From positions 1 through 64,000 of the IMG/VR virus record IMGVR_UViG_2923350032_000001: a DNA stretch of 64,000 nt. One strand, written 5' to 3'. The notes under the pieces were generated by a model that saw only the letters and a list, made by a program, of their open reading frames with translations, did not search any database and had not been told where the DNA came from. This DNA comes from a virus. Its lineage: Duplodnaviria > Heunggongvirae > Uroviricota > Caudoviricetes. Positions 2,424 to 63,164 of this stretch are shown piece by piece; position 1 is the stretch's first letter; each line of letters opens with the position of its first letter. A program made the position numbers and the translations under genes.

Positions 2424-3554
2424 TTAATTACTGACAGTTTCAGGTTTCGGGAAACTGAACAGTAAATCACGGTAGTATTCGTATTGTTTCTGGCGCAACT
2501 CGATTTCACGCGGGAGACCTTCAGTGATGGAGTTGGTCAGGGTGTCGAATTTATCGAGTATTTCGACAATGCGAGCTTGTTCTTCTGAAGGTGGTACAGG
2601 TATTGGGAATTTTAAAAACATTGGTCGACGAAGTGAGGTAACCGATGAACTTACTGATGCTTTTTGAATATAGGTAAAAAAATATGCTGTTATATAGTGA
2701 TATACAAATCGCGGATTCATAAATGCATTTGGGACAATACGATATGCTCTCTGATGCAAAGCATATTTACCTTTAGCATAATGAAATACCTTCCCCACCC
2801 CGGCGCCATCTCCAGCCGTAATGATTGCTGTTTCATCAAAATCAAATACATTTAACTTTAATGGTTCACGTCCACGTGCATAAAAAATATATTTGCCATG
2901 TTCTATAGCATCTTGCGTATCATGGTTACCTGTTCCTATAACAGCCACTTCCCCCAAAGTCTTCCACTCAACCTCACCCTCTTTAAAACTCAACAACTGG
3001 TCGCGATAGTAATTGTACTGTTTTTTACGCATGTTAAGCTCAGCGGTAAGCTCAGCGGTAAGTGCAGTAAATTTATCCAGAATCCGAACGATTTCAGACT
3101 GGATGGCAAGGGATTTTTCTGGGGTATCCGGGCAGGGGATTGGTATCAAAATAGGTGATACATCACGTGGATAAACATGCGGAACACCACCACCACTCTT
3201 AAACTCATGGAGTTGTTGTTGCATATTCATCAAAAAATGATAGCAATATCGTGGTAACAAAATATTATGAGGTTTTACAGTAAATGCATCCGATACGAAA
3301 ATTGGTTCCTCCCACCAACTAACGAATCCCGCATACGCACCAGAACCTGCGATAACAATTGTTTGTCCGTCGCGATTACTAGTATTATGATAATAAGCTG
3401 GTGTACGTCCGCCAGCGACTACGGGGATGGTTCCATCAATAACATCTTTTTTTGTAATTGATGTGCCTCGCTTTAGTTCAGCTATACTGCCTAGTGTTTT
3501 CCACTCAACCTCAACCCCATCCAGCAATTTTTCCAGATAACTCATCTCGCTCAT
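2424..3554 (-). CDS. hsdS: Type I R-M specificity subunit HsdS, type IC (EcoR124-like)
   Basis: 376-aa ORF with two target-recognition halves; central TAELTAEL encoded by a 12-bp tandem duplication near 3040-3063; 4-bp overlap with hsdM. Confidence 0.85.
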
Positions 3555-11032: not shown

Positions 11033-12141
11033 GAACATCGTTAGTTACCCGTGAAGAGATGATCGAGGCAATTGAACAGCACACTGCCTGTATCAGTACC
11101 AGGGATATACCTGGCGTTATTGCCAACTACTTCATGATCACCAAACAACTTTACCGGAGAAAGGACAAGAACGCGGTTCACCGTATCCTGCTGTCTGATA
11201 TCCGCGAATACCTGCTCGAACAGGGGCATCTGAATTACGCAACCGTCGCAGCCGAAGCACGCAAGGAGGCACACAGAATGAAAGCAACTAACGTTAAATC
11301 AGAAAAAATTTATGCACCTTCAGTTCAGGAATCGGAACTGGTGGTTGTTCAGAATCAGCCGGATGAAATTCCCGTTCTGGAATGGCAGGGAGTACGTGTC
11401 GTGACAACCGAAACTCTTGCTAGAGGGTATGGGGTCGATGAAGCCAATATTCGCAACAATTTGTCTCGCAACCTTGACCGCTTTGAAGAAGGTAAGCATT
11501 ACTTTCTTCTAACAGGTTTAAAATTAAGAGAATTTAAGAACAGAGTAACCGGAAGTTACTCTGTTGGTAAGAACGCCAGAAGCCTTACACTCTGGACAGA
11601 GCGCGGCGCTGCACGCATGTCTAAGATCGTGGACACAAATGAAGCATGGGCATTCTTTGAAAAACTGGAAGACAGCTACTTCCGACAAAAAGAACAGCAA
11701 CCGATCGCAATCCCCCAGACGCTTCCTGAAGCCCTACGCCTGGCTGCCGAACTGGCTGAACAAAAGCAGCTTCTGGAACAGAAAGCCCACCAGCTAAATC
11801 AGCAGCTGGTGGCCGCCGCTCCTAAGGTCGATTTTGCCGACCGGGTATCAGTAGCTAAAGGGATCCTGATTGGGAATTTTGCAAAGGTTGTTGGACTTAA
11901 GCAAAACGCGCTGTTTGCCTGGTTACGGGAGAACGGCATTCTGATAGCGTCCGGCGGGCGTAAAAATGTGCCGTTCCAGCAGTACATAAACGCCGGATAT
12001 TTCACAGTGAAAGAAGTGGTGCTGGATGATGAAGATGGCTACCAGATACGGCTGACGCCCCAATTAACGGGGAAAGGACAACAGTGGTTGACGCGTAAAC
12101 TGCTCGATGCTGGCTTGTTAAAACCGGTGGCGGCTGAATAA
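11029..12141 (+). CDS. Antirepressor-like protein (Ant/KilA-N domain plus Ant C-terminal domain)
   Basis: 370-aa ORF coupled to the icd-like gene; C-terminal 150 aa nearly identical to ORF 25081-25524 and similar to the C-terminus of KilA. Confidence 0.7.
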   Translation: MRTSLVTREEMIEAIEQHTACISTRDIPGVIANYFMITKQLYRRKDKNAVHRILLSDIREYLLEQGHLNYATVAAEARKEAHRMKATNVKSEKIYAPSVQESELVVVQNQPDEIPVLEWQGVRVVTTETLARGYGVDEANIRNNLSRNLDRFEEGKHYFLLTGLKLREFKNRVTGSYSVGKNARSLTLWTERGAARMSKIVDTNEAWAFFEKLEDSYFRQKEQQPIAIPQTLPEALRLAAELAEQKQLLEQKAHQLNQQLVAAAPKVDFADRVSVAKGILIGNFAKVVGLKQNALFAWLRENGILIASGGRKNVPFQQYINAGYFTVKEVVLDDEDGYQIRLTPQLTGKGQQWLTRKLLDAGLLKPVAAE

Positions 12142-15820: not shown

Positions 15821-16396
15821 ATGAAAACAATCGAACAAAAAATTGAACAGTGCCGCAAGTGGCAGAAGGCAGCCAGAGAACGAGCGATCGCTCGGCAACG
15901 GGAGAAGTTGGCTGATCCGGTCTGGCGAGAATCTCAATATCAGAAAATGCGGGATACTATCGACCGCCGTATCGCTAAACAGAAAGAGCGCCCACCAGCC
16001 AGCAAAACGCGGAAAAGTGCGGTAAAAATAAAATCTCGTGGCTTGAAGGGACGAACACCGACGGCAGAGGAACGGCACATAGCCAATGCTCTTGGCGCTC
16101 TCCCCTGCATTGCGTGCTATATGCATGGAGTAATATCTGAAGAGGTGTCTCTGCACCATATTTCCGGTCGTACCGCGCCTGGTTGTCACAAAAAGCAATT
16201 GCCACTTTGTAGATGGCACCACCAGCATGCAGCACCGGCTGAAGTAAGAGCAAAATACCCCTGGCTGGTCCCTGTTCATGCCGATGGTGTGGTTGGAGGC
16301 AAGAAAGAATTCACCCTGCTGAACAAGTCAGAGATGGAGTTACTGGCTGACGCCTATGAGGGGTCGTCTCAGAAAACGGAAAATAAAGCACGCTAA
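15821..16396 (+). CDS. ref: Ref, recombination enhancement function (HNH endonuclease), 3' end replaced by transposon sequence
   Basis: 191-aa [29 protein letters not shown]... with Cys/His HNH motifs; the last 11 codons and stop lie inside the Tn21-family inverted repeat. Confidence 0.85.
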
Positions 16397-16397
16397 G
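16360..16397. repeat. Tn21-family 38-bp terminal inverted repeat
   Basis: GGGGTCGTCTCAGAAAACGGAAAATAAAGCACGCTAAG. Confidence 0.85.
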
Positions 16398-19359
16398 CCG
16401 GTTGCAGAGGCCGTAGCGGCCTGAACTTCCCCGCGCCGATCTTGGCGCTGCTGCGCCATAGGTAATCACCGGTCAGGTTGATGTGCTCCCAGCCGAGTGG
16501 CGACAGGTACTGCAATAGCGAGTCATCGACGGCATGACCATTGCCGCGCAACGCATGCGCCGCACGCTCCAGGTAGACCGTGTTCCACAGCACGATGGCC
16601 GCCGTCACCAGGTTGAGGCCGCTGGCCCGGTAGCGCTGCTGCTCGAAACTGCGGTCACGGATTTCACCAAGGCGGTTGAAGAACACGGCACGGGCCAGCG
16701 CATTGCGCGCCTCGCCCTTGTTCAGCCCGGCATGCACGCGGCGGCGTAGCTCGACGCTTTGCAGCCAGTCGAGGATGAACAGCGTGCGCTCGATGCGGCC
16801 CAACTCGCGCAGCGCGACGGCCAAGCCGTTCTGGCGCGGGTAGCTGCCGAGTTTCCTGAGCATCAGCGAGGCCGTCACCGTGCCCTGCTTGATCGAGGTG
16901 GCCAGCCGCAGGATTTCGTCCCAATGGGCGCGGACGTGCTTGATGTTGAGCGTGCCGCCGATCATCGGCTTGAGCGCGTCATAGGCGGCATCGCCCTTCG
17001 GGATGTAGAGCTTGGTGTCGCCCAGGTCGCGGATGCGCGGCGCGAAGCGGAAGCCCAAGAGGTGCATCAGGGCGAAGACGTGATCGGTGAAGCCCGCCGT
17101 GTCGGTGTAGTGCTCCTCGATCCGCAGGTCGGATTCGTGGTACAGCAGGCCGTCGAGCACGTAGGTTGAGTCGCGCAGGCCGACATTGACCACCTTGGTG
17201 TGGAATGGCGCGTATTGGTCGGAGATGTGGGTGTAGAAAGTCCGTCCTGGGCTGCTGCCATATTTTGGGTTGATGTGCCCCGTGCTCTTTGCCTTGCTAG
17301 CGGTTCGGAAATTCTGTCCGTCCGATGATGATGTGGTGCCATCGCCCCAGTGCCCGGCAAAGGGATGCCGAAACTGAGCGTTGACCAGTTCAGCCAACGC
17401 TGTCGAGTACGTTTCGTCGCGGGTATGCCAGGCTTGCAGCCAAGCGAGCTTCGCGTAGGTCGTGCCGGGGCAGGACTCGGCCATCTTGGTCAGGCCCAGG
17501 TTGATCGCGTCGGCCAGGATCGTGGTCAACAACAGGTTCTTGTCCTTGGCCAGATCGCCCGATTTCAAGTGCGTGAAGTGCCGGGTGAAGCCCGTCCACT
17601 CATCGACTTCGAGCAGCAGTTCGGTGATCTTGACGTGCGGCAGGACCATGGCTGTCTGGTCTATCAGCGCCTGCGCGGTGTCGGGCACCGCCGCATCCAG
17701 CGGCGTGATCTTCAAGCCCGACTCGGTGATGATGGCATCCGGCAGGTCGTTGGCTGCCGCCATGCGGTTGACGGTGGCAAGTTGTGCTTCCAGCAGCGTC
17801 AGCCGCTCATGCAGATATTGTTCGCAGTCGGTGGCCACGGCCAGCGGCAATTCGCTGGACTGCTTGAGGCTGGTGAACTTCTCGGGCGGTACCAGGTAGT
17901 CCTCGAAGTCCTTGAACTGGCGTGAACCCTGCACCCAGATGTCGCCCGAGCGCAGGGAGTTCTTCAACTCGGACAGCGCGCACAGTTCGTAGTAGCGCCG
18001 GTCGATGCCGGCGTCGGTCATCACCAGTTTCTGCCAGCGCGGCTTGATGAAGCCGGTCGGTGCATCGGCTGGCAGCTTGCGGGCGTTGTCGGTGTTCATG
18101 CCGCGCAGCACCTCAATGGCATCAAGCACGTTTTTGGCGGCGGGCGCGGCCCGCAGCTTGAGCACGGCAAGGAATTCCGGTGCATAGCGGCGCAGGGTGG
18201 CGTAGCTCTCGCCGATGCGATGCAGGAAATCGAAGTCATCGGGTTGCGCGAGCTTCTGCGCCTCGGTGACGCTCTCGGCAAAGGAATCCCAGGACATGAC
18301 GGCCTCGATGGCGGCAAACGCATCGCGGCCTGATTGCTTGGCGTCGATCAGCGCCTGACCGATGCGCCCGTACAGACGTACCTTGGCGTTGATGGCCTTG
18401 CCTGACGCCTGGAACTGCTGCTGATGCTTATTCTTGGCAGCGTTAAACAGCTTACCCAGGATGCGGTCGTGCAGGTCGATGATTTCGTCGGTGACGGTGG
18501 CCATGCCCTCGGTGGCCAGCGCCACGAGAGTGGCGTAGCGCCGTTGCGGCTCGAATTTGGCCAGGTCGGCGGGTGTCATCTGGCCGCCCTCGCGGGCAAT
18601 CTTGAGCAGGCGGTTCTGGTGAACCAGCCGCTCGATGCCGGTAGGCAGATCGAGTGCCTGCCATGCCTTGAGGCGTTCGATGTGTTCCAGCATATGCCGC
18701 GAATTTGGCTTGGCCGGAGACTGGCGCAACCAAGCCAACCAGGTCGTCTTGCCGTTGTCCCGGCGCTTGAGCAGATCGTCGAGGCGGCGGCGATGCGCGT
18801 CCGCCAGTGGTTCGGCCAAGGCGTCGTAGATGCGCCGGTTAGCACGGGTGATCGCCTCTGCACTCGCCCGCTCGACGGCGTTGAGGGCGGGCAGAATGAC
18901 CGACTGCCGCCGCAGGTGCCCGATCAAGGCGCTGGCCAGCACGATGCCTTTGTCGGTTTGCATCGCCAGCTCGGTCAGCATCTGGACGGCCTGCCGGTAA
19001 TGGCTCATGGTGAAGGGCCGGAAACCGAACACGGTTTGCAGCTCGCTCAGGTGCTCGCGCCGGGTCTGCTCCCGCTGGCCGTACTCGTTCCAGCTTTCGA
19101 CGCCGACCTTGAGCTGGTCGGCGACCAGCTTCAACAAGGGCGGGAACGGTAGTTCATCGACGCCCAGGATGACGCCGGGAAAGCGCAGGTAACAGAGCTG
19201 CACCGCGAAGCCCAGCCGATTGGCTGGCCCGCGCCGCTGTCGGATGATCGAGAGGTCGGTATCGTTGAATGTGTAATGTCGGATCAGGTCGTCCTTGGAG
19301 TCCGGCAACGCCAGCAGGCTTTCCCGCTCGGCGGCGGACAGGATGGAACGACGTGGCAT
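16393..19359 (-). CDS. tnpA: Tn3-family transposase TnpA (Tn21-like)
   Basis: 988-aa [34 protein letters not shown]... Confidence 0.95.
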
Positions 19360-19361
19360 AT

Positions 19362-19922
19362 TTACTGATCCGTTCTCAAGTATTGATACAGGGTTTCGCG
19401 ACTGATTCCGAATTCACGAGCAAGCTTGGTCTTTTGCTCGCCAGCCTCGATACGTTGGCGCAGTTCGGCAATACGCTCAGACGACAGGGATTTCTTCCTG
19501 CCACGGTAAGCCCCGCGTTGCTTGGCGAGCGCAATACCCTCGCGCTGACGCTCGCGGATCAGGGCGCGCTCGAACTCGGCGAACGCGCCCATCACCGAGA
19601 GCATCAGGTTCGCCATCGGAGAGTCTTCGCCAGTAAAACTGAGGTGTTCCTTGACGAATTCGATATGCACGCCGCGTTGTGTCAGCGTTTGCACGATCCG
19701 GCGCAAATCATCGAGATTGCGCGCCAGGCGATCCATGCTATGCACCACCACGGTGTCGCCGGTGCGGGCGAAGCTTATCAGCGCTTCCAGTTGCGGACGC
19801 TTGACATCCTTGCCGGATGCCTTGTCGCTAAAAGCGCGATCAACCTTGACGCCTTCCAGTTGCCGTTCCGGGTTCTGGTCGAAGGTGCTGACCCTGATAT
19901 ACCCAATGCGCTGTCCAGTCAT
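19362..19922 (-). CDS. tnpR: Serine resolvase TnpR (Tn21-like)
   Basis: 186-aa [24 protein letters not shown]... with C-terminal HTH. Confidence 0.95.
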
Positions 19923-20060
19923 GGAATTCCCTGCAAAATGTCAGGGAAGACTCTATGACCTTCAACGAGATATGTCAATAAATTCAAAATTCAATCCTAT
20001 CCTGACGCAATTTACACATGGCATCTGACATCAGGTTAGGGTATGCCTCAACCTGACGGC
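19923..20060. other. res: Probable res (resolution) site of the Tn21-family element
   Basis: Located immediately upstream of tnpR with TGTCA-type subsites. Confidence 0.45.
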
Positions 20061-20154
20061 GGCGAATCACAAGCGTCCGGTTTGACGCTGGTTTCGGTCG
20101 CAGTGCTGGCCCGCGCCTGGAAGCGCTGATAGCACTCCAGCCCGCAGAAATGCT

Positions 20155-20432
20155 GGCACTGTTGCAAATAGTCGGTGGTGATAAACTTATCATCCCCTTT
20201 TGCTGATGGAGCTGCACATGAACCCATTCAAAGGCCGGCATTTTCAGCGTGACATCATTCTGTGGGCCGTACGCTGGTACTGCAAATACGGCATCAGTTA
20301 CCGTGAGCTGCAGGAGATGCTGGCTGAACGCGGAGTGAATGTCGATCACTCCACGATTTACCGCTGGGTTCAGCGTTATGCGCCTGAAATGGAAAAACGG
20401 CTGCGCTGGTACTGGCGTAACCCTTCCGATCT
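20155..20432 (+). mobile_element. Truncated IS26 (first 278 bp: IR plus 5' part of tnpA)
   Basis: 14-bp IR GGCACTGTTGCAAA at 20155-20168; tnpA N-terminal 72 codons identical to the complete copy, then abrupt junction. Confidence 0.9.
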
Positions 20433-21252
20433 GGCACTGTTGCAAAGTTAGCGATGAGGCAGCCTTTTGTCTTATTCAAAGGCCTTACATTTCAAAAACT
20501 CTGCTTACCAGGCGCATTTCGCCCAGGGGATCACCATAATAAAATGCTGAGGCCTGGCCTTTGCGTAGTGCACGCATCACCTCAATACCTTTGATGGTGG
20601 CGTAAGCCGTCTTCATGGATTTAAATCCCAGCGTGGCGTTGATTATCCGTTTCAGTTTGCCATGATCGCATTCAATCACGTTGTTCCGGTACTTAATCTG
20701 TCGGTGTTCAACGTCAGACGGGCACCGGCCTTCGCGTTTGAGCAGAGCAAGCGCGCGACCATAGGCGGGCGCTTTATCCGTGTTGATGAATCGTGGGATC
20801 TGCCACTTCTTCACGTTGTTGAGGATTTTACCCAGAAACCGGTATGCAGCTTTGCTGTTACGACGGGAGGAGAGATAAAAATCGACAGTGCGGCCCCGGC
20901 TGTCGACGGCCCGGTACAGATACGCCCAGCGGCCATTGACCTTCACGTAGGTTTCATCCATGTGCCACGGGCAAAGATCGGAAGGGTTACGCCAGTACCA
21001 GCGCAGCCGTTTTTCCATTTCAGGCGCATAACGCTGAACCCAGCGGTAAATCGTGGAGTGATCGACATTCACTCCGCGTTCAGCCAGCATCTCCTGCAGC
21101 TCACGGTAACTGATGCCGTATTTGCAGTACCAGCGTACGGCCCACAGAATGATGTCACGCTGAAAATGCCGGCCTTTGAATGGGTTCATGTGCAGCTCCA
21201 TCAGCAAAAGGGGATGATAAGTTTATCACCACCGACTATTTGCAACAGTGCC
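20433..21252 (-). mobile_element. Complete IS26 (820 bp, IS6 family)
   Basis: 14-bp IRs at 20433-20446 and 21239-21252; internal 234-codon transposase. Confidence 0.95.
20485..21189 (-). CDS. tnpA: IS26 transposase
   Basis: [34 protein letters not shown]... 234 aa; the ORF-track N-terminal extension MLMELH is rejected. Confidence 0.95.
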   Translation of the reverse strand: MNPFKGRHFQRDIILWAVRWYCKYGISYRELQEMLAERGVNVDHSTIYRWVQRYAPEMEKRLRWYWRNPSDLCPWHMDETYVKVNGRWAYLYRAVDSRGRTVDFYLSSRRNSKAAYRFLGKILNNVKKWQIPRFINTDKAPAYGRALALLKREGRCPSDVEHRQIKYRNNVIECDHGKLKRIINATLGFKSMKTAYATIKGIEVMRALRKGQASAFYYGDPLGEMRLVSRVFEM

Positions 21253-21266
21253 CCATATCAGCCCCC

Positions 21267-21857
<591 letters not shown>

Positions 21858-21963
21858 TTAACTGATTCTACGAGATGTCATTTGTCCATTGTGCCAACTG
21901 TTATTATGGATATCGTAATTCGTACGAATCGCGCTGTTACAGGATGTATAGCAACCTTAATAA

Positions 21964-23196
21964 TTATTTGAATATATCGGTTATAGTTGGGTAATTATAC
22001 ATCTTAAGCTTATCTCTAAATTTCATAGAAAATATAGGGTCTACCTTACATCTCTGTGAGAGCTTTGCAAGCCTTAGCTCCCTCTCTTTCATAATATCTT
22101 TGTATTCTCTATCAATACTCTCCTGAATTTGCTGATTCTCAACAGGAGACGGTTTTGTAATTTTATCCCATTGATAAGTTGGATTCTCAGTGTAATTTAA
22201 ATCATCATTTTGAAGTAATTTCTCAAGATGAGACATAGCATTTTCATATAGCATTCTATCTTGGGGCAACATACTTGCAACACGCACTTCGCTTTCAATT
22301 TCCGATACTATCATTTCAAGTTGACGTTTTTCCATCGCTATAGCTACACGGAATGGAAACAGGGCTTCTTGCTTAATCATTTGACAATTCACATTATTGT
22401 TTATGTCACTAAGTAATTTTACAAATGAGAACTTCGCTAAAGGCTGCTGATTTATGACACTCTGTCTAACTGGCATTGTGTAGCTCGGTGTTTTTTCAAG
22501 TGTTTTCTTCACTTGCTCTATAGCAACATTAGGAGTTTTGAGAACAGTCTTTGCTGGAATACGTAGCACCATAAACCCCTCCTTTATTGAATATTCATCA
22601 CGAATACGATCTCGCTCTATTTGTTCAGGGGATGAATGCCATGCTGCACCATCAATTTCTATAATTTGGCGTCCATTTACGACAAAATCAAAACGATAAC
22701 GCTTATAGGGCACTTGCATTTCAAGCACTAAGTCAGGAGAAACTAACATTCCAGATTTAGGTTTAAGATTAAACTCTGCAACCATTTTACGAAGAAATGC
22801 CTCCTCAGCCGGAGATTCGCAACCTTTGCAAAATATATCAAGCCAGTTTTCTGCGTCAGCGTCAACAGTTTGCCACCATGCTAACAGTCCGCGTCGGTGT
22901 CCATATAATCGTTCATCTGACGGTTTTGTTAATGGCTTTGTTAACGGTTTAATTAAGGGTTCATTTAACGGCTTATTTAACGGATTTAATAACGATTCAT
23001 TTAATGGTTTGATTGACGGTCTATTTGACGACTCAATCGGTGGTTTAGATGATGATTTGTTTTTTTTATCAAAACCTACGATAGTTATATATGCTACATA
23101 TAGCATCATGCCTGCAACAGGCCATACACATGGATAAATCACGTAACACAACAGTAATAGAACAATAGTCCCAAAAAATGTTAACTTCTTCCGCAT
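21964..23196 (-). CDS. Membrane-anchored protein with Pro-rich tetrapeptide repeats and a DUF559/Vsr-like endonuclease-fold domain
   Basis: 410 aa; N-terminal TM helices; PLNKPLNEPLIKPLTKPLTKP repeats; motif IEIDGAAWHSS...RDRIRDEY...GFMVLRI; low-GC gene. Confidence 0.55.
   Translation of the reverse strand: MRKKLTFFGTIVLLLLCYVIYPCVWPVAGMMLYVAYITIVGFDKKNKSSSKPPIESSNRPSIKPLNESLLNPLNKPLNEPLIKPLTKPLTKPSDERLYGHRRGLLAWWQTVDADAENWLDIFCKGCESPAEEAFLRKMVAEFNLKPKSGMLVSPDLVLEMQVPYKRYRFDFVVNGRQIIEIDGAAWHSSPEQIERDRIRDEYSIKEGFMVLRIPAKTVLKTPNVAIEQVKKTLEKTPSYTMPVRQSVINQQPLAKFSFVKLLSDINNNVNCQMIKQEALFPFRVAIAMEKRQLEMIVSEIESEVRVASMLPQDRMLYENAMSHLEKLLQNDDLNYTENPTYQWDKITKPSPVENQQIQESIDREYKDIMKERELRLAKLSQRCKVDPIFSMKFRDKLKMYNYPTITDIFK
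22922..23030. repeat. Imperfect 12-bp tandem repeat array (about 9 units) inside ORF 21964-23196
   Basis: Units GGNTTNNTTAAY repeated head to tail; encodes the Pro-rich tetrapeptide repeats. Confidence 0.7.
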
Positions 23197-23269
23197 ACCA
23201 AACTCTTTGCATCAATAAAGGGGGCTGGCTTATATAATCAAATCACATGCCCGAAATAAAAGATGACCA

Positions 23270-23706
23270 ACACCAACGGAAATAACACTCTAAAGCTCCA
23301 CCGCCAGCACCACCAGCACCACCAGCACCACCAGCACCACCAGCACCACCAGCAACTGCACCCAAGGTAGAAGTTCCTTTAATATTATATCCAGTAACAC
23401 TACCAGCTACTGCACCGAGAACAGCACCGAAAGTCTGAGCTGCTTATTTATTAGCTGTATTATCAACTTTTACTTTGGCTGGGAGAACAGAGATTATATT
23501 TACTACTCTTGTTTTGAATTAAGTTGGGCTGTGTCGTACACATCTGCCGCATATTCAGCACCATTAGACTGACACCCTGAGAGAAAAATTGCAGAAACAA
23601 CCATGACGCATAAAGAAGAAATTTTAGCCATTAGAATCATCCCAGAAAAAAATATAATCCAAGAAAATCTATCACATAAGCCAAATACAAACAAGATTAC
23701 AAACAA
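23270..23706 (-). pseudogene. Decayed SlyB/Pcp-like glycine-zipper outer-membrane lipoprotein
   Basis: ORF 23503-23706 has a lipobox (AIFLSGC) and DVYDTAQLNSKQ resembling SlyB; downstream in another frame a Gly-zipper GAVLGAVAGSVTG...(GAG)5 follows, separated by stop codons. Confidence 0.4.
23305..23349. repeat. Perfect 9-bp tandem repeat CAGCACCAC x5
   Basis: Direct reading; encodes (Gly-Ala-Gly)5 on the minus strand. Confidence 0.9.
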
Positions 23707-23931
23707 GATTAATCCTATTGATGTATATCAATTATTATAAAAAATACGATCTTCATTGCTGAAGCTGCGTTATATTAAGTCTAAAAAAATCAACCATCGA
23801 TATTATATGCTCTGCTAATAATTTATACTTGATTTAGTTGAATTGGATTAATATTGACACTTACTCACTCTCTAATTATATATAATTTCCAATTTTATAT
23901 GCGCATATATAGAAACCTATACCAATAGCAC

Positions 23932-23948
23932 TTCGCTCTAATAAATTT
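23932..23948 (+). promoter_or_regulatory. C1 operator-like site upstream of the immI-like module
   Basis: TTCGCTCTAATAAATTT, 15/17 to consensus, about 310 bp upstream of icd. Confidence 0.55.
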
Positions 23949-24099
23949 GTATTTTTAAGTCGCGAATGCTATCTTTTCGCATCATATTGACCTTTTAATC
24001 GTTCAGGCTTGTAGTTCCGCCGTCGTAGCAAATTCTGCGACCGGGTTTAGCAGCCTGAATACTTACGCGGACAACCGCAGATTTCCGATATTGCGGTAT

Positions 24100-24255
24100 T
24101 TTTGTGTCCGTAAACCACGTTACGCCCGAATTATGGTGGGGCGTGATGGGGAGGCTTCGGCCTGCTGGTTTCGTAAGTGCCAGTCTGCTAACCCCGTCAC
24201 GTCCTGCCACCTGTTTAGCAGCGGGTCGCAGGTTGTTTATCAACTTACGAGGCCG
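24100..24255 (+). ncRNA. c4: Candidate c4-type antisense regulatory RNA region
   Basis: Position between operator and icd; GC-rich hairpins; TTTTTGTGTC element shared with the paralogous region at about 10617; not verified against the P1 c4 sequence. Confidence 0.3.
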
Positions 24256-24260
24256 TAACT

Positions 24261-24482
24261 ATGGTTAATGCCAATCCTTGCGCACGCCAAGAATTCATCT
24301 GGCGTTTCTATTCCTGTAAAAAACACCACTATCACTTCGTTATCGCAGCAACAGAAGACGAAGCACGCTCTCAATTGCCTGATGGCCCCTGCATTTTTAC
24401 TGCCCGTTTTTCAACTAACTCGCGCAATTCACTTAGTTACTGGAGCCTCCCCTTCTCTGCCGACGTTCAGGGGGGTTTATGA
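24261..24482 (+). CDS. icd: Icd-like protein
   Basis: 73-aa ORF, 4-bp overlap with the ant start. Confidence 0.65.
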   Translation: MVNANPCARQEFIWRFYSCKKHHYHFVIAATEDEARSQLPDGPCIFTARFSTNSRNSLSYWSLPFSADVQGGL

Positions 24483-25524
24483 AAACACCTCTCGTCACCC
24501 GTAATGAAATAGCCGAAGCGATCGCCTTGCATACTGCCTGTATGCCGACACGGGAGACCCCCGGCGCAATTGCCAACTATTTCATGATAACCAGACGTTT
24601 TTATACCCGAACAGATAAGGCTGTGATCAACAGGCTACTGATAGCCGAGATCAGGGATTATTTGATTGAACAAGGACGTCTACGTTACGCAACAGTGGCA
24701 GCAGAAATGAGAAAGGAGGCGCGCAGAATGACCGGTAATAATTTGAATGTTGAAAAACCAGCACCTGTTGCTTCAGCTACGCCATCACCAGCTGTGAATG
24801 TTATCTCCAACACTGGAGACACAATCGACAGCCAGACACTGTTAAAGATGGTCAATGAAGCGCGTAAGTTATGTGTGGAACCAGAGGTTCGGAACAACAA
24901 ATTCATCGAAAAAATACTCGACGAATTAGAAGGTGAGGACGGTTACACAAAAAGTGCAACCGTGCCGCCAGGTGGCGGTACGCCTATGGTTGTCATAACC
25001 ATGACCTACAAACAAGCCCTGCGAGTCGCGCGCGCGAGTCAAAAGCGGTCCGCCGTTCGCTGATCGACAAACTGGAAGAATTGCAGCAGGCATACTCCCC
25101 TGCCCCATCGATCCCCCAAACATTACCAGAAGCTCTACGCATGGCTGCCGAGTTGGCAGAGCAGAAAATGCAGTTGGAACAGCAGCTGGTGGCCGCAGCC
25201 CCTAAAGTCGATTTTGCCGACCGGGTATCAGTGGCCAATGGAATCCTGATCGGGAACTTTGCAAAGGTCGTTGGACTTAAGCAAAACGCCCTTTTCTCAT
25301 GGTTGCGCCAGAACGGCATTCTCATGGCTTTTGGAGCGCGCAAAAACGTACCGCGCCAACAGTACATCAATGCGGGGTATTTCACGGTGAAAGAAGTGGT
25401 GCTGGATGATGAAAATGGCTACCAGATACGGCTGACGCCCCAATTAACGGGTAAAGGCCAGCAGTGGTTAACTCGCAAGCTACTTGATGCTGGTTTGTTA
25501 AAACCAGTGGCGTCCTTGTCTTAA
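24479..25524 (+). pseudogene. ant: Antirepressor Ant, apparently frameshifted into two ORFs
   Basis: ORFs 24479-25063 and 25081-25524 together parallel the 370-aa protein at 11029-12141; frame change near a GCGCGCGCG run around 25030-25065. Confidence 0.55.
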
Positions 25525-26964: not shown

Positions 26965-26993
26965 CAGACGTAGTAAGAACCACCAGCATTGTA

Positions 26994-63092: not shown

Positions 63093-63164
63093 TAGTTACA
63101 GTGTCACTTTTAATGCTGGTGGAGTGCGCCCACCAGCATTTTTTTCGTCCAATGAGGAGGGCAT

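Follow-up and report, generated by a model that had tools for sequence, protein, structure and literature searches.

The 64,000 nucleotides analysed here (positions 1 to 64,000 of the caudovirus record IMGVR_UViG_2923350032_000001; hereafter the window) carry on their minus strand a broken lipoprotein gene in which a 9-bp unit stands in five perfect tandem copies. An open reading frame (ORF) begins with an ATG at 23631, and its product, MAKISSLCVMVVSAIFLSGC followed by QSNGAEYAADVYDTAQLNSKQE, contains the lipobox L-S-G-C and the SlyB-like motif DVYDTAQLNSKQ. The ORF ends at a TAG (23505-23503) that is immediately followed by a TAA (23502-23500), and a second, shifted frame on the same strand then encodes VVNIISVLPAKVKVDNTANK and, beyond a further stop codon, AAQTFGAVLGAVAGSVTGYNIKGTSTLGAVAGGAGGAGGAGGAGGAGGGAL. 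A preliminary description made from the letters of the window had reported this succession of lipobox ORF, stop codons, frame change and glycine zipper as well as the five perfect units. All are present, and a regular expression placed the units at 23305-23349. It had overlooked the extra in-frame TAA at 23446-23444 and the lost 3′ third of the gene, and the position 23270 from which it counted the feature falls outside the remnant, on the far side of the large deletion's junction (~23294/23293), where the DNA is the following gene's own leader. The features of the remnant, in coding order, are as follows.

23506..23631, minus strand: 5′ lipoprotein remnant of 42 codons, with signal peptide, lipobox LSGC and the first 22 mature residues (from the ORF list and its translation)
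23507..23513, minus strand: site of a 7-bp deletion, where the direct repeat AACAAGA-AACAAGA was cut to one copy, with a frameshift after ..NSKQE
23294..23499, minus strand: frame-shifted remnant, about codons 45-103 of the ancestral 170-codon gene, covering a beta strand and two glycine-zipper helices
23444..23446, minus strand: in-frame nonsense codon TAA, in place of the CAA (Gln65) that the intact gene and every one-copy pseudogene allele have there
23305..23349: array of five perfect 9-bp units (regular expression), CAGCACCAC on the plus and GGTGGTGCT on the minus strand, within a wider array at 23299-23354 (Tandem Repeats Finder)
23310..23353, minus strand: five tandem exact Chi octamers, 5′-GCTGGTGG-3′, at 9-bp spacing, with hits at 23310, 23319, 23328, 23337 and 23346
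23293..23294, minus strand: junction of a ~973-bp deletion, ..GGCGGTGGAGCT joined to TTAGAGTG.. (positions 3467 and 4441 of L001)
23197..23292, minus strand: native leader of the DUF559 gene, kept in place and today continuous with the lipoprotein remnant (alignment of window 23294..21900 with L001 4440..5861)

Family and lesions of the lipoprotein gene

Matches to the locus among complete E. coli genomes were confined to plasmids (22 of 5426 genomes), and 15 of the 22 matching plasmids carry an uninterrupted 170-codon ‘membrane protein’ gene followed by a DUF5384 gene. The intact ortholog in pTetA_020022 (WP_033550822.1) is 84% identical to Upf50.5 of phage P7 and 65% identical to YfgH of E. 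coli K-12 (163 residues), and it matches PHROG 1277 with an E-value of 1.8e-87; its partner protein is 80% identical to P7 Upf50.0 and 49% identical to YfgI. Once its frame is corrected, the remnant in the window shows 91% identity to the intact pTetA_020022 protein over ~110 residues and 55% to K-12 YfgH. The two genes stand in the same order in pTetA_020022, in P7 and in the lambdoid phage TL-2011b, and form the chromosomal pair yfgH-yfgI in E. coli K-12. P7-type phages were reached only by protein-level search; a megablast with the locus gave no match in the phage collection. A full-text search of the literature yielded no papers on upf50.5, Upf50.0 or DUF5384.

The family counts 393 homologues, nearly all of about 170 amino acids. 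Across 45 of them three cysteines are invariant, namely the lipobox cysteine (C20) and two near the C-terminus, C141 and C166. The window still encodes the lipobox of the family (..AIFLSGC followed by QS..), and it lacks both an uninterrupted ~170-codon frame with the C141/C166 beta domain and the DUF5384 (YfgI/Upf50.0-like) gene that should come next in line, this partner having been deleted. Judged by this homology the dead gene is a pseudogene of the P7 upf50.5/E. coli yfgH lipoprotein family, a family related to SlyB, and the window copy is not one of its functional members. The Upf50.5/YfgH-like lipoprotein is labelled ‘DNA methyltransferase’ in PHROG 1277 and in several RefSeq phage records, and ‘minor tail protein’ in one (NC_050152.1, NC_031129.1, NC_042128.1, NC_019445.1). 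The methyltransferase label is evidently wrong, and all of these labels seem to be propagated mis-annotations.

The resemblance to SlyB that had been proposed for the remnant stands at the level of the superfamily and gives way, for the close family, to YfgH/Upf50.5 with the identities of 84% and 65% given above; by sequence comparison SlyB appears as a distant relative. As a single sequence the intact ortholog matched SlyB (PDB 7ojf_A) over its full length with an E-value of 1.1e-5, and a profile built from 45 intact homologues reached 1.8e-9, with residues 9-163 against 6-154. In the AlphaFold model computed for the intact ortholog a strand is followed by a helical hairpin, and this by a C-terminal beta domain; the mean pLDDT is just 62, and the model was used for ranking folds only. 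The top Foldseek match of this low-confidence model was again SlyB 7ojf_A (E 6.6e-7, TM 0.49/0.57, 137/138 residues aligned), while the TraT structures 9fs5 and 9fsm came second and third with E-values of ~0.2 and TM scores of 0.2-0.27. Pfam and NCBIfam gave sub-threshold matches only for the lipoprotein: the Rick_17kDa_Anti/Gly-zipper models scored 17.0, 17.2 and 15.7 bits against gathering cut-offs of 24.2, 25 and 28.9. The best Pfam match, over the zipper region, was TraT (PF05818). Membership in that family was rejected at 24.5 bits, below the gathering cut-off of 31, with only profile positions 72-156 of 214 covered.

Three lesions separate the window copy from the intact gene of pTetA_020022, which served as the reference. 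The 7-bp deletion is seen as AAAACAAGAAACAAGAGTAG in L001 and AAAACAAGAGTAG in the window. At the nonsense codon the alignment column for window position 23446 reads T T C T T. The ~973-bp deletion took out codons 104-170 (the C-terminal third), the DUF5384/yfgI-like gene in full and ~218 bp of intergenic DNA, and what remains of the lipoprotein gene now abuts the 97 bp that immediately precede the DUF559 gene. The NCBI annotation of the locus in sister plasmids reads ‘frameshifted; internal stop; incomplete’, and the 7-bp deletion and the 973-bp junction are common to all 16 pseudogene alleles compared (the window, five RefSeq plasmids and ten contigs recovered via the stub protein, one of which, L032, is E. 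coli plasmid CP191571.1 and was also among the complete-plasmid matches). The lesions are real and inherited and are not sequencing errors, because they recur in at least 16 independent assemblies. An intact single frame after sequence correction would have made this a normal gene, as the preliminary description allowed; with the lesions shared by independent assemblies the gene stays broken, and its status as a pseudogene is confirmed.

The 42-aa product of the stub is present in identical form in 122 blocks of a public assembly index. As WP_259788507.1 it belongs to the 90% cluster of the intact protein and is filed as an Acinetobacter baumannii protein. A scan of genome and viral contigs for the 17-base deletion junction returned chance matches only, in unrelated organisms. 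The pseudogene had already been flagged by the public annotation of the sister plasmids, and overall the locus is a case of ordinary gene decay.

Copy number of the repeat and history of the locus

The array of CAGCACCAC is the only one of its sort in the 64-kb window (regular expression). Tandem Repeats Finder delimits it at 23299-23354 with a period of 9, 6.2 copies, 97% matches and a score of 105. Chance origin is excluded because the odds that a 9-mer is followed by four further perfect copies of itself, with 36 matched bases, somewhere in 64 kb are roughly 64,000 x 4^-36. One repeat copy was found in all intact genes examined, the locus matches of the 15 intact-gene E. coli plasmids (15/15) are of equal length, and no expansion was found in the best 120 of the 393 intact homologues. 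Among the pseudogene alleles six of 16, which fall into two haplotype groups, retain the CAA codon and have a single copy. The other ten carry TAA and all have at least two copies: five have two, two have three, one further three-copy allele contains a GGC>GGT change, and two have five.

Copy number varies between plasmids that are otherwise nearly or fully identical. Over 2.3 kb there are zero single-nucleotide polymorphisms (SNPs) among the window (five copies), L029 (five) and L002 (two), and L031 and L033, with two copies each, lie 1 SNP from the window over the same length; L004, with three copies, shows zero SNPs over 1.8 kb. In a second haplotype group L005 (three copies) and L026 (two copies) are 1 SNP apart. 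The five-copy allele L029 keeps tubB and tubC downstream, where the window has IS26 after tubA, and the five-copy allele therefore occurs in at least two different plasmids; its recurrence is recorded in GCA_003328285.1, whose contig differs in structure downstream of the locus. A scan of viral and metagenome contigs for the two-copy repeat together with its upstream anchor did not find it. The tract appears to be a genuine instability hotspot, because sequences free of SNPs over 2.3 kb differ in copy number alone. The preliminary description had suspected a slippage hotspot and proposed to look at repeat-number heterogeneity; compared between plasmid assemblies, the copy numbers of 1, 2, 3 or 5 among near-identical plasmids bear out a mutational hotspot, for which slippage is the presumed mechanism. 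As the sole difference between otherwise identical 2.3-kb segments, the 9-bp tract could serve as a fine-scale marker within this plasmid lineage.

Taken together, we consider it likely, with a probability of roughly four in five, that the locus is the remnant of a dead two-gene phage cassette, decaying neutrally, in which a slippage-prone minisatellite has been expanding since the death of the gene. The ancestral cassette would have consisted of a YfgH-like outer-membrane glycine-zipper lipoprotein (P7 upf50.5) and a YfgI-like DUF5384 protein (P7 upf50.0), in a slot that in P1/P7-like phage-plasmids lies between immI (c4 RNA-icd-ant) and the tail-tube genes. The 7-bp deletion between the AACAAGA direct repeats, causing the frameshift, and the ~973-bp deletion of the C-terminal beta domain and the partner gene would have come first, and the CAA>TAA change to a stop codon would have followed later. 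With the constraint on the helix gone, the near-duplicate 9-mer of the ancestral sequence, GCTGGTGGT GCTGGCGGT, may then have been duplicated, and replication slippage or unequal exchange may have changed the copy number repeatedly to give 2, 3 and 5 perfect units. The order of these events rests on parsimony, which suggests that the expansion postdates gene death. The earlier wording, a ‘repeat-expanded gene now disrupted’, would accordingly have the order reversed: intact genes and CAA pseudogenes hold one copy, and expansion is seen in dead alleles only.

A phase-variable or contingency locus was also considered and rejected. The tract cannot switch the reading frame because its unit is 9 bp long, three other irreversible lesions are present, and no promoter-like site spans the tract.

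Genomic setting, Chi sites and rival explanations

The window is a P1/P7-like phage-plasmid, as shown by its C4/immI RNAs, the plasmid-only locus matches and its collinearity with P1 and P7 (lpa-pacA-pacB-c1-cre-ref to the left; dmt/ban/head and tail genes to the right). The pseudogene adjoins the c4-icd-ant immunity region, where the P1-type immI control RNAs lie just upstream of an icd-like ORF at 24261-24482. In sister plasmids the locus is flanked by icd-like and KilAC antirepressor genes on one side and, on the other, by a gene with a DUF559 endonuclease domain and then the tail-tube genes. The neighbouring features are the following.

24129-24214, plus strand: C4 antisense RNA (Rfam, 70.8 bits)
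24009-24061, plus strand: a1/b1 target element of the C4 RNA (Rfam, 51.4 bits)
21964..23196, minus strand: neighbouring gene, intact and separate from the pseudogene, whose 410-aa product has a DUF559/MTES_1575 endonuclease domain
23686..23711: another short repeat that varies, TACAAACAAGAT (12 bp x 2.2), upstream of the ATG of the lipoprotein gene (Tandem Repeats Finder)

The 12-bp repeat has one more unit (a 12-bp insertion) in the related plasmids L005 and L026. The DUF559 gene is 1233 bp long in the window and 1260 bp in pTetA_020022, a difference of 27 bp, and contains imperfect 12/24/36-bp tandem repeats at 22920-23026, which are translated into a KPL(N/T)-type repeat close to the protein's N-terminus. 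Antisense to the pseudogene there are two short plus-strand ORFs, both probably spurious: 23603-23740 (45 aa), which RefSeq sister plasmids list as hypothetical protein WP_161550801.1, and 23263-23370 (MTNTNGNNTLKLHRQHHQHHQHHQHHQHHQQLHPR), a His/Gln repeat, (HQH)n, read off the repeat tract. The ant1/ant2 antirepressor gene (24479-25524, plus strand) is apparently split into ORFs of 194 and 147 aa and, compared with the 345-aa allele of L025, lacks 1 nt near 25029; the antirepressor gene of the sister plasmid pEC85-4-128k is annotated as ‘frameshifted’. Between ref and tubA (window ~16360-21253) lie a Tn3-family transposon (988-aa transposase at 16393-19359, resolvase, beta-lactamase) and IS26, whose inverted-repeat end is at ~21240-21253 and which lies 13 bp after tubA. 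At the transposon junction ~47 kb of P7-equivalent DNA appears to be absent, from ref to tubB (restriction-modification, tail fibre, baseplate, sit, tubB/C). With tail genes missing and ant1 frameshifted, the plasmid of the window is probably non-viable as a phage and may be a defective prophage-plasmid.

On the coding strand the tandem reads T-GCTGGTGG-T-GCTGGTGG.., so that every unit holds one E. coli Chi octamer, an identity that the preliminary description had overlooked; GGCGGAGCA is an example of a synonymous unit without Chi. The whole window contains 33 Chi sites where 1.8 are expected, and none of 100 shuffles gave as many. Between 16.2 and 36 kb there are six Chi sites on the minus strand, five from the array and the other at 26980. 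A Chi site at the position of the repeat is present only in the pTetA-type allele and is absent from P7, TL-2011b and yfgH. By the published orientation rule the array faces RecBCD that comes from the low-coordinate side of the window and moves towards higher coordinates. At nucleotides 4-7 of the 3′ flank the sequence is TGGT, which gives two favoured and two disfavoured positions (A/G being favoured; rules of PMC5041463). Elsewhere in the window three inverted Chi pairs form hairpins (11787-11812, 55432-55453 and 63115-63137); they resemble terminator stems made of Chi on both strands, an example at 63115-63137 being GCTGGTGGAGTGCGCCCACCAGC with a run of T behind it. The 94.8 kb of P1 hold 50 Chi sites, and in P1 as in P7 Chi outnumbers every other octamer. 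Growth of P1 and P7 needs RecA and RecBCD, and it has been argued that Chi was selected there as a hotspot, in non-coding DNA included.

These properties raise the question of whether the expansion is neutral. A higher copy number could have been favoured for more reliable recognition by RecBCD, with a benefit of Chi dosage in the recombinational rescue of broken or rolling-circle DNA or in the circularisation of injected DNA. We regard this as unlikely, even though n copies make n exact Chi sites in a genome as enriched for Chi and as dependent on RecA/RecBCD as described above. According to a paper citing Kuzminov (1994), cut plasmid DNA is better protected by a tandem pair of Chi sites than by a single site. 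With an assumed recognition of 20-35% for one site, our own calculation gives 67-88% for five. The TAA group includes only counts of at least two, with independent rises to three in two haplotype groups, and the array contributes all but one of the six Chi sites that the minus strand has between 16.2 and 36 kb. Against these points, the Chi reading follows automatically from the Ala-Gly-Gly codons, and three or more copies of (GGTGGTGCT) are a common Gly-Ala coding repeat, unrelated to Chi, in environmental viral and metagenome contigs; a scan for three tandem units returned over 119 loci in viral and over 120 in metagenome sequences, the majority on environmental or giant-virus contigs, and is silent on Chi function. 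In an unrearranged P7-like genome the locus would lie ~55 kb from pac, in the Chi-poor middle and rarely in the terminal repeats where Chi is proposed to matter, and the plasmid of the window, with its ~47 kb of apparently missing tail genes and its frameshifted ant1, is probably no viable phage. The sites are just 1 nt apart, their TGGT flank is only middling by the A/G rule, and the commonest expanded allele has two copies only. It is unlikely that we are looking at a natural, still-expanding Chi array that took its raw material from a dead glycine-zipper gene, whether dosage was favoured or Chi-stimulated unequal exchange destabilises the array. If it were true, Chi dosage would here have evolved in nature through repeat expansion. 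The window offers a natural 5x Chi array in a Chi-selected genome, and the plasmids provide a ready allelic series (1, 2, 3 and 5 copies) for the question of Chi dosage in vivo.

The remaining explanations concern the order of events, the function of the remnant and the quality of the assemblies. That the repeat expanded first and contributed to the inactivation of the gene, as the preliminary description had it, is very improbable. By analogy with the SlyB-like architecture, a second glycine-zipper helix lengthened by twelve residues would be likely to impair the membrane hairpin, but six one-copy pseudogene alleles in two haplotype groups already have the 7-bp and 973-bp deletions, no intact gene has more than one copy, and expansion first would need repeated contraction to exactly one copy together with a reversion of TAA to CAA. 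We give still less credence to a functional remnant, be it a small lipoprotein made from the stub, a fused leader that tunes the DUF559 gene, or the plus-strand ORF 23263-23370 as a new His/Gln peptide. The stub does have its start codon, its signal peptide and its lipobox intact, and many assemblies share it unchanged, yet a recent common plasmid origin (0-37 SNPs in 2.3 kb) explains that conservation. The deletion left the dead gene no more than 97 bp from the start codon of the DUF559 gene and took away ~218 bp of the latter's native upstream region; a consensus scan of 23100-24100 found no promoter-like or terminator-like site there, a result that is uninformative rather than negative evidence, and a 9-bp unit allows no frame switching. 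The plus-strand ORF exists, but it starts within the deletion junction, has no visible Shine-Dalgarno sequence and varies in length with the copy number. Sequencing or assembly errors as the source of the disruptions or of the five copies are next to inconceivable. Short tandem repeats and AT-rich direct repeats are occasional sites of assembler error, but the same 7-bp deletion, junction and stop codon occur in independent complete genomes and drafts from several countries and hosts, and the five-copy allele recurs in GCA_003328285.1 with its different downstream structure.

Several points weigh against the reading that we prefer, a neutrally decaying cassette with post-mortem repeat expansion. 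Every unit spells Chi exactly, in a family of genomes for which positive selection of Chi has been argued, and the neutrality of the tract is an assumption. The copy-number variation rests on a comparison between plasmid assemblies, in a sample of about 16 interrelated alleles, so that the hotspot is deduced from roughly four independent copy-number changes, and the first duplication, from one to two copies, was seemingly a single event. No return to one copy is seen among the TAA alleles, which could hint at an upward bias over pure neutral slippage.

Relation to known systems

In gene content the locus carries little weight, being a further instance of accessory-gene decay on a resistance plasmid of the P1-like kind. 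It does link the uncharacterised P7 genes upf50.5 and upf50.0 to the chromosomal yfgH/yfgI pair. The P7 cassette (AF503408.1, 50050-50571 for Upf50.5 and 49507-50046 for Upf50.0; PHROG 1277 and PHROG 1094) occupies the same slot, divergent from Op(c4)/c4-icd-ant and upstream of tubA, and Upf50.5 is annotated there as an ‘outer membrane lipoprotein of unknown function’. In contrast to P7, the window copy is dead and its Upf50.0 partner deleted, a DUF559 endonuclease gene stands between cassette and tubA in the lineage of the window, and the P7 gene has no Chi site at the position of the repeat. YfgH (b2505) and YfgI (b2506) of K-12 show the same pair arrangement, with a DUF5384 protein as the partner; yfgH is a chromosomal housekeeping gene, whereas the window copy is a dead phage/plasmid paralogue. 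YfgH has been reported as a glycine-zipper lipoprotein of the outer membrane with a stabilising effect on the stressed membrane, and SlyB-like rings are predicted for it (bioRxiv 10.64898/2025.12.22.696046). Given this proposed role, phages may carry envelope-stabilising lipoprotein cassettes. With SlyB itself (PDB 7ojf/7ojg) the family shares the DVY..KQ motif and, according to the low-confidence model, probably also the helical hairpin and a beta domain at the C-terminus, but identity is just ~24%, and C141 of YfgH/Upf50.5 sits opposite a non-cysteine in SlyB alignments.

The tract can be set beside two kinds of repeat. Simple-sequence contingency loci likewise have a short tandem repeat in a surface-protein gene with a copy number that varies between close relatives, but here the tract is in frame, the gene was already dead, and there is no on/off switch. 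Engineered 3x Chi arrays and paired Chi sites have been used to raise recognition by RecBCD, with an assumed 20-35% per site. In contrast to such constructs, the array described here is a natural expansion of a coding repeat within a pseudogene, and its putative sites stand 1 nt apart in a suboptimal 3′ context.

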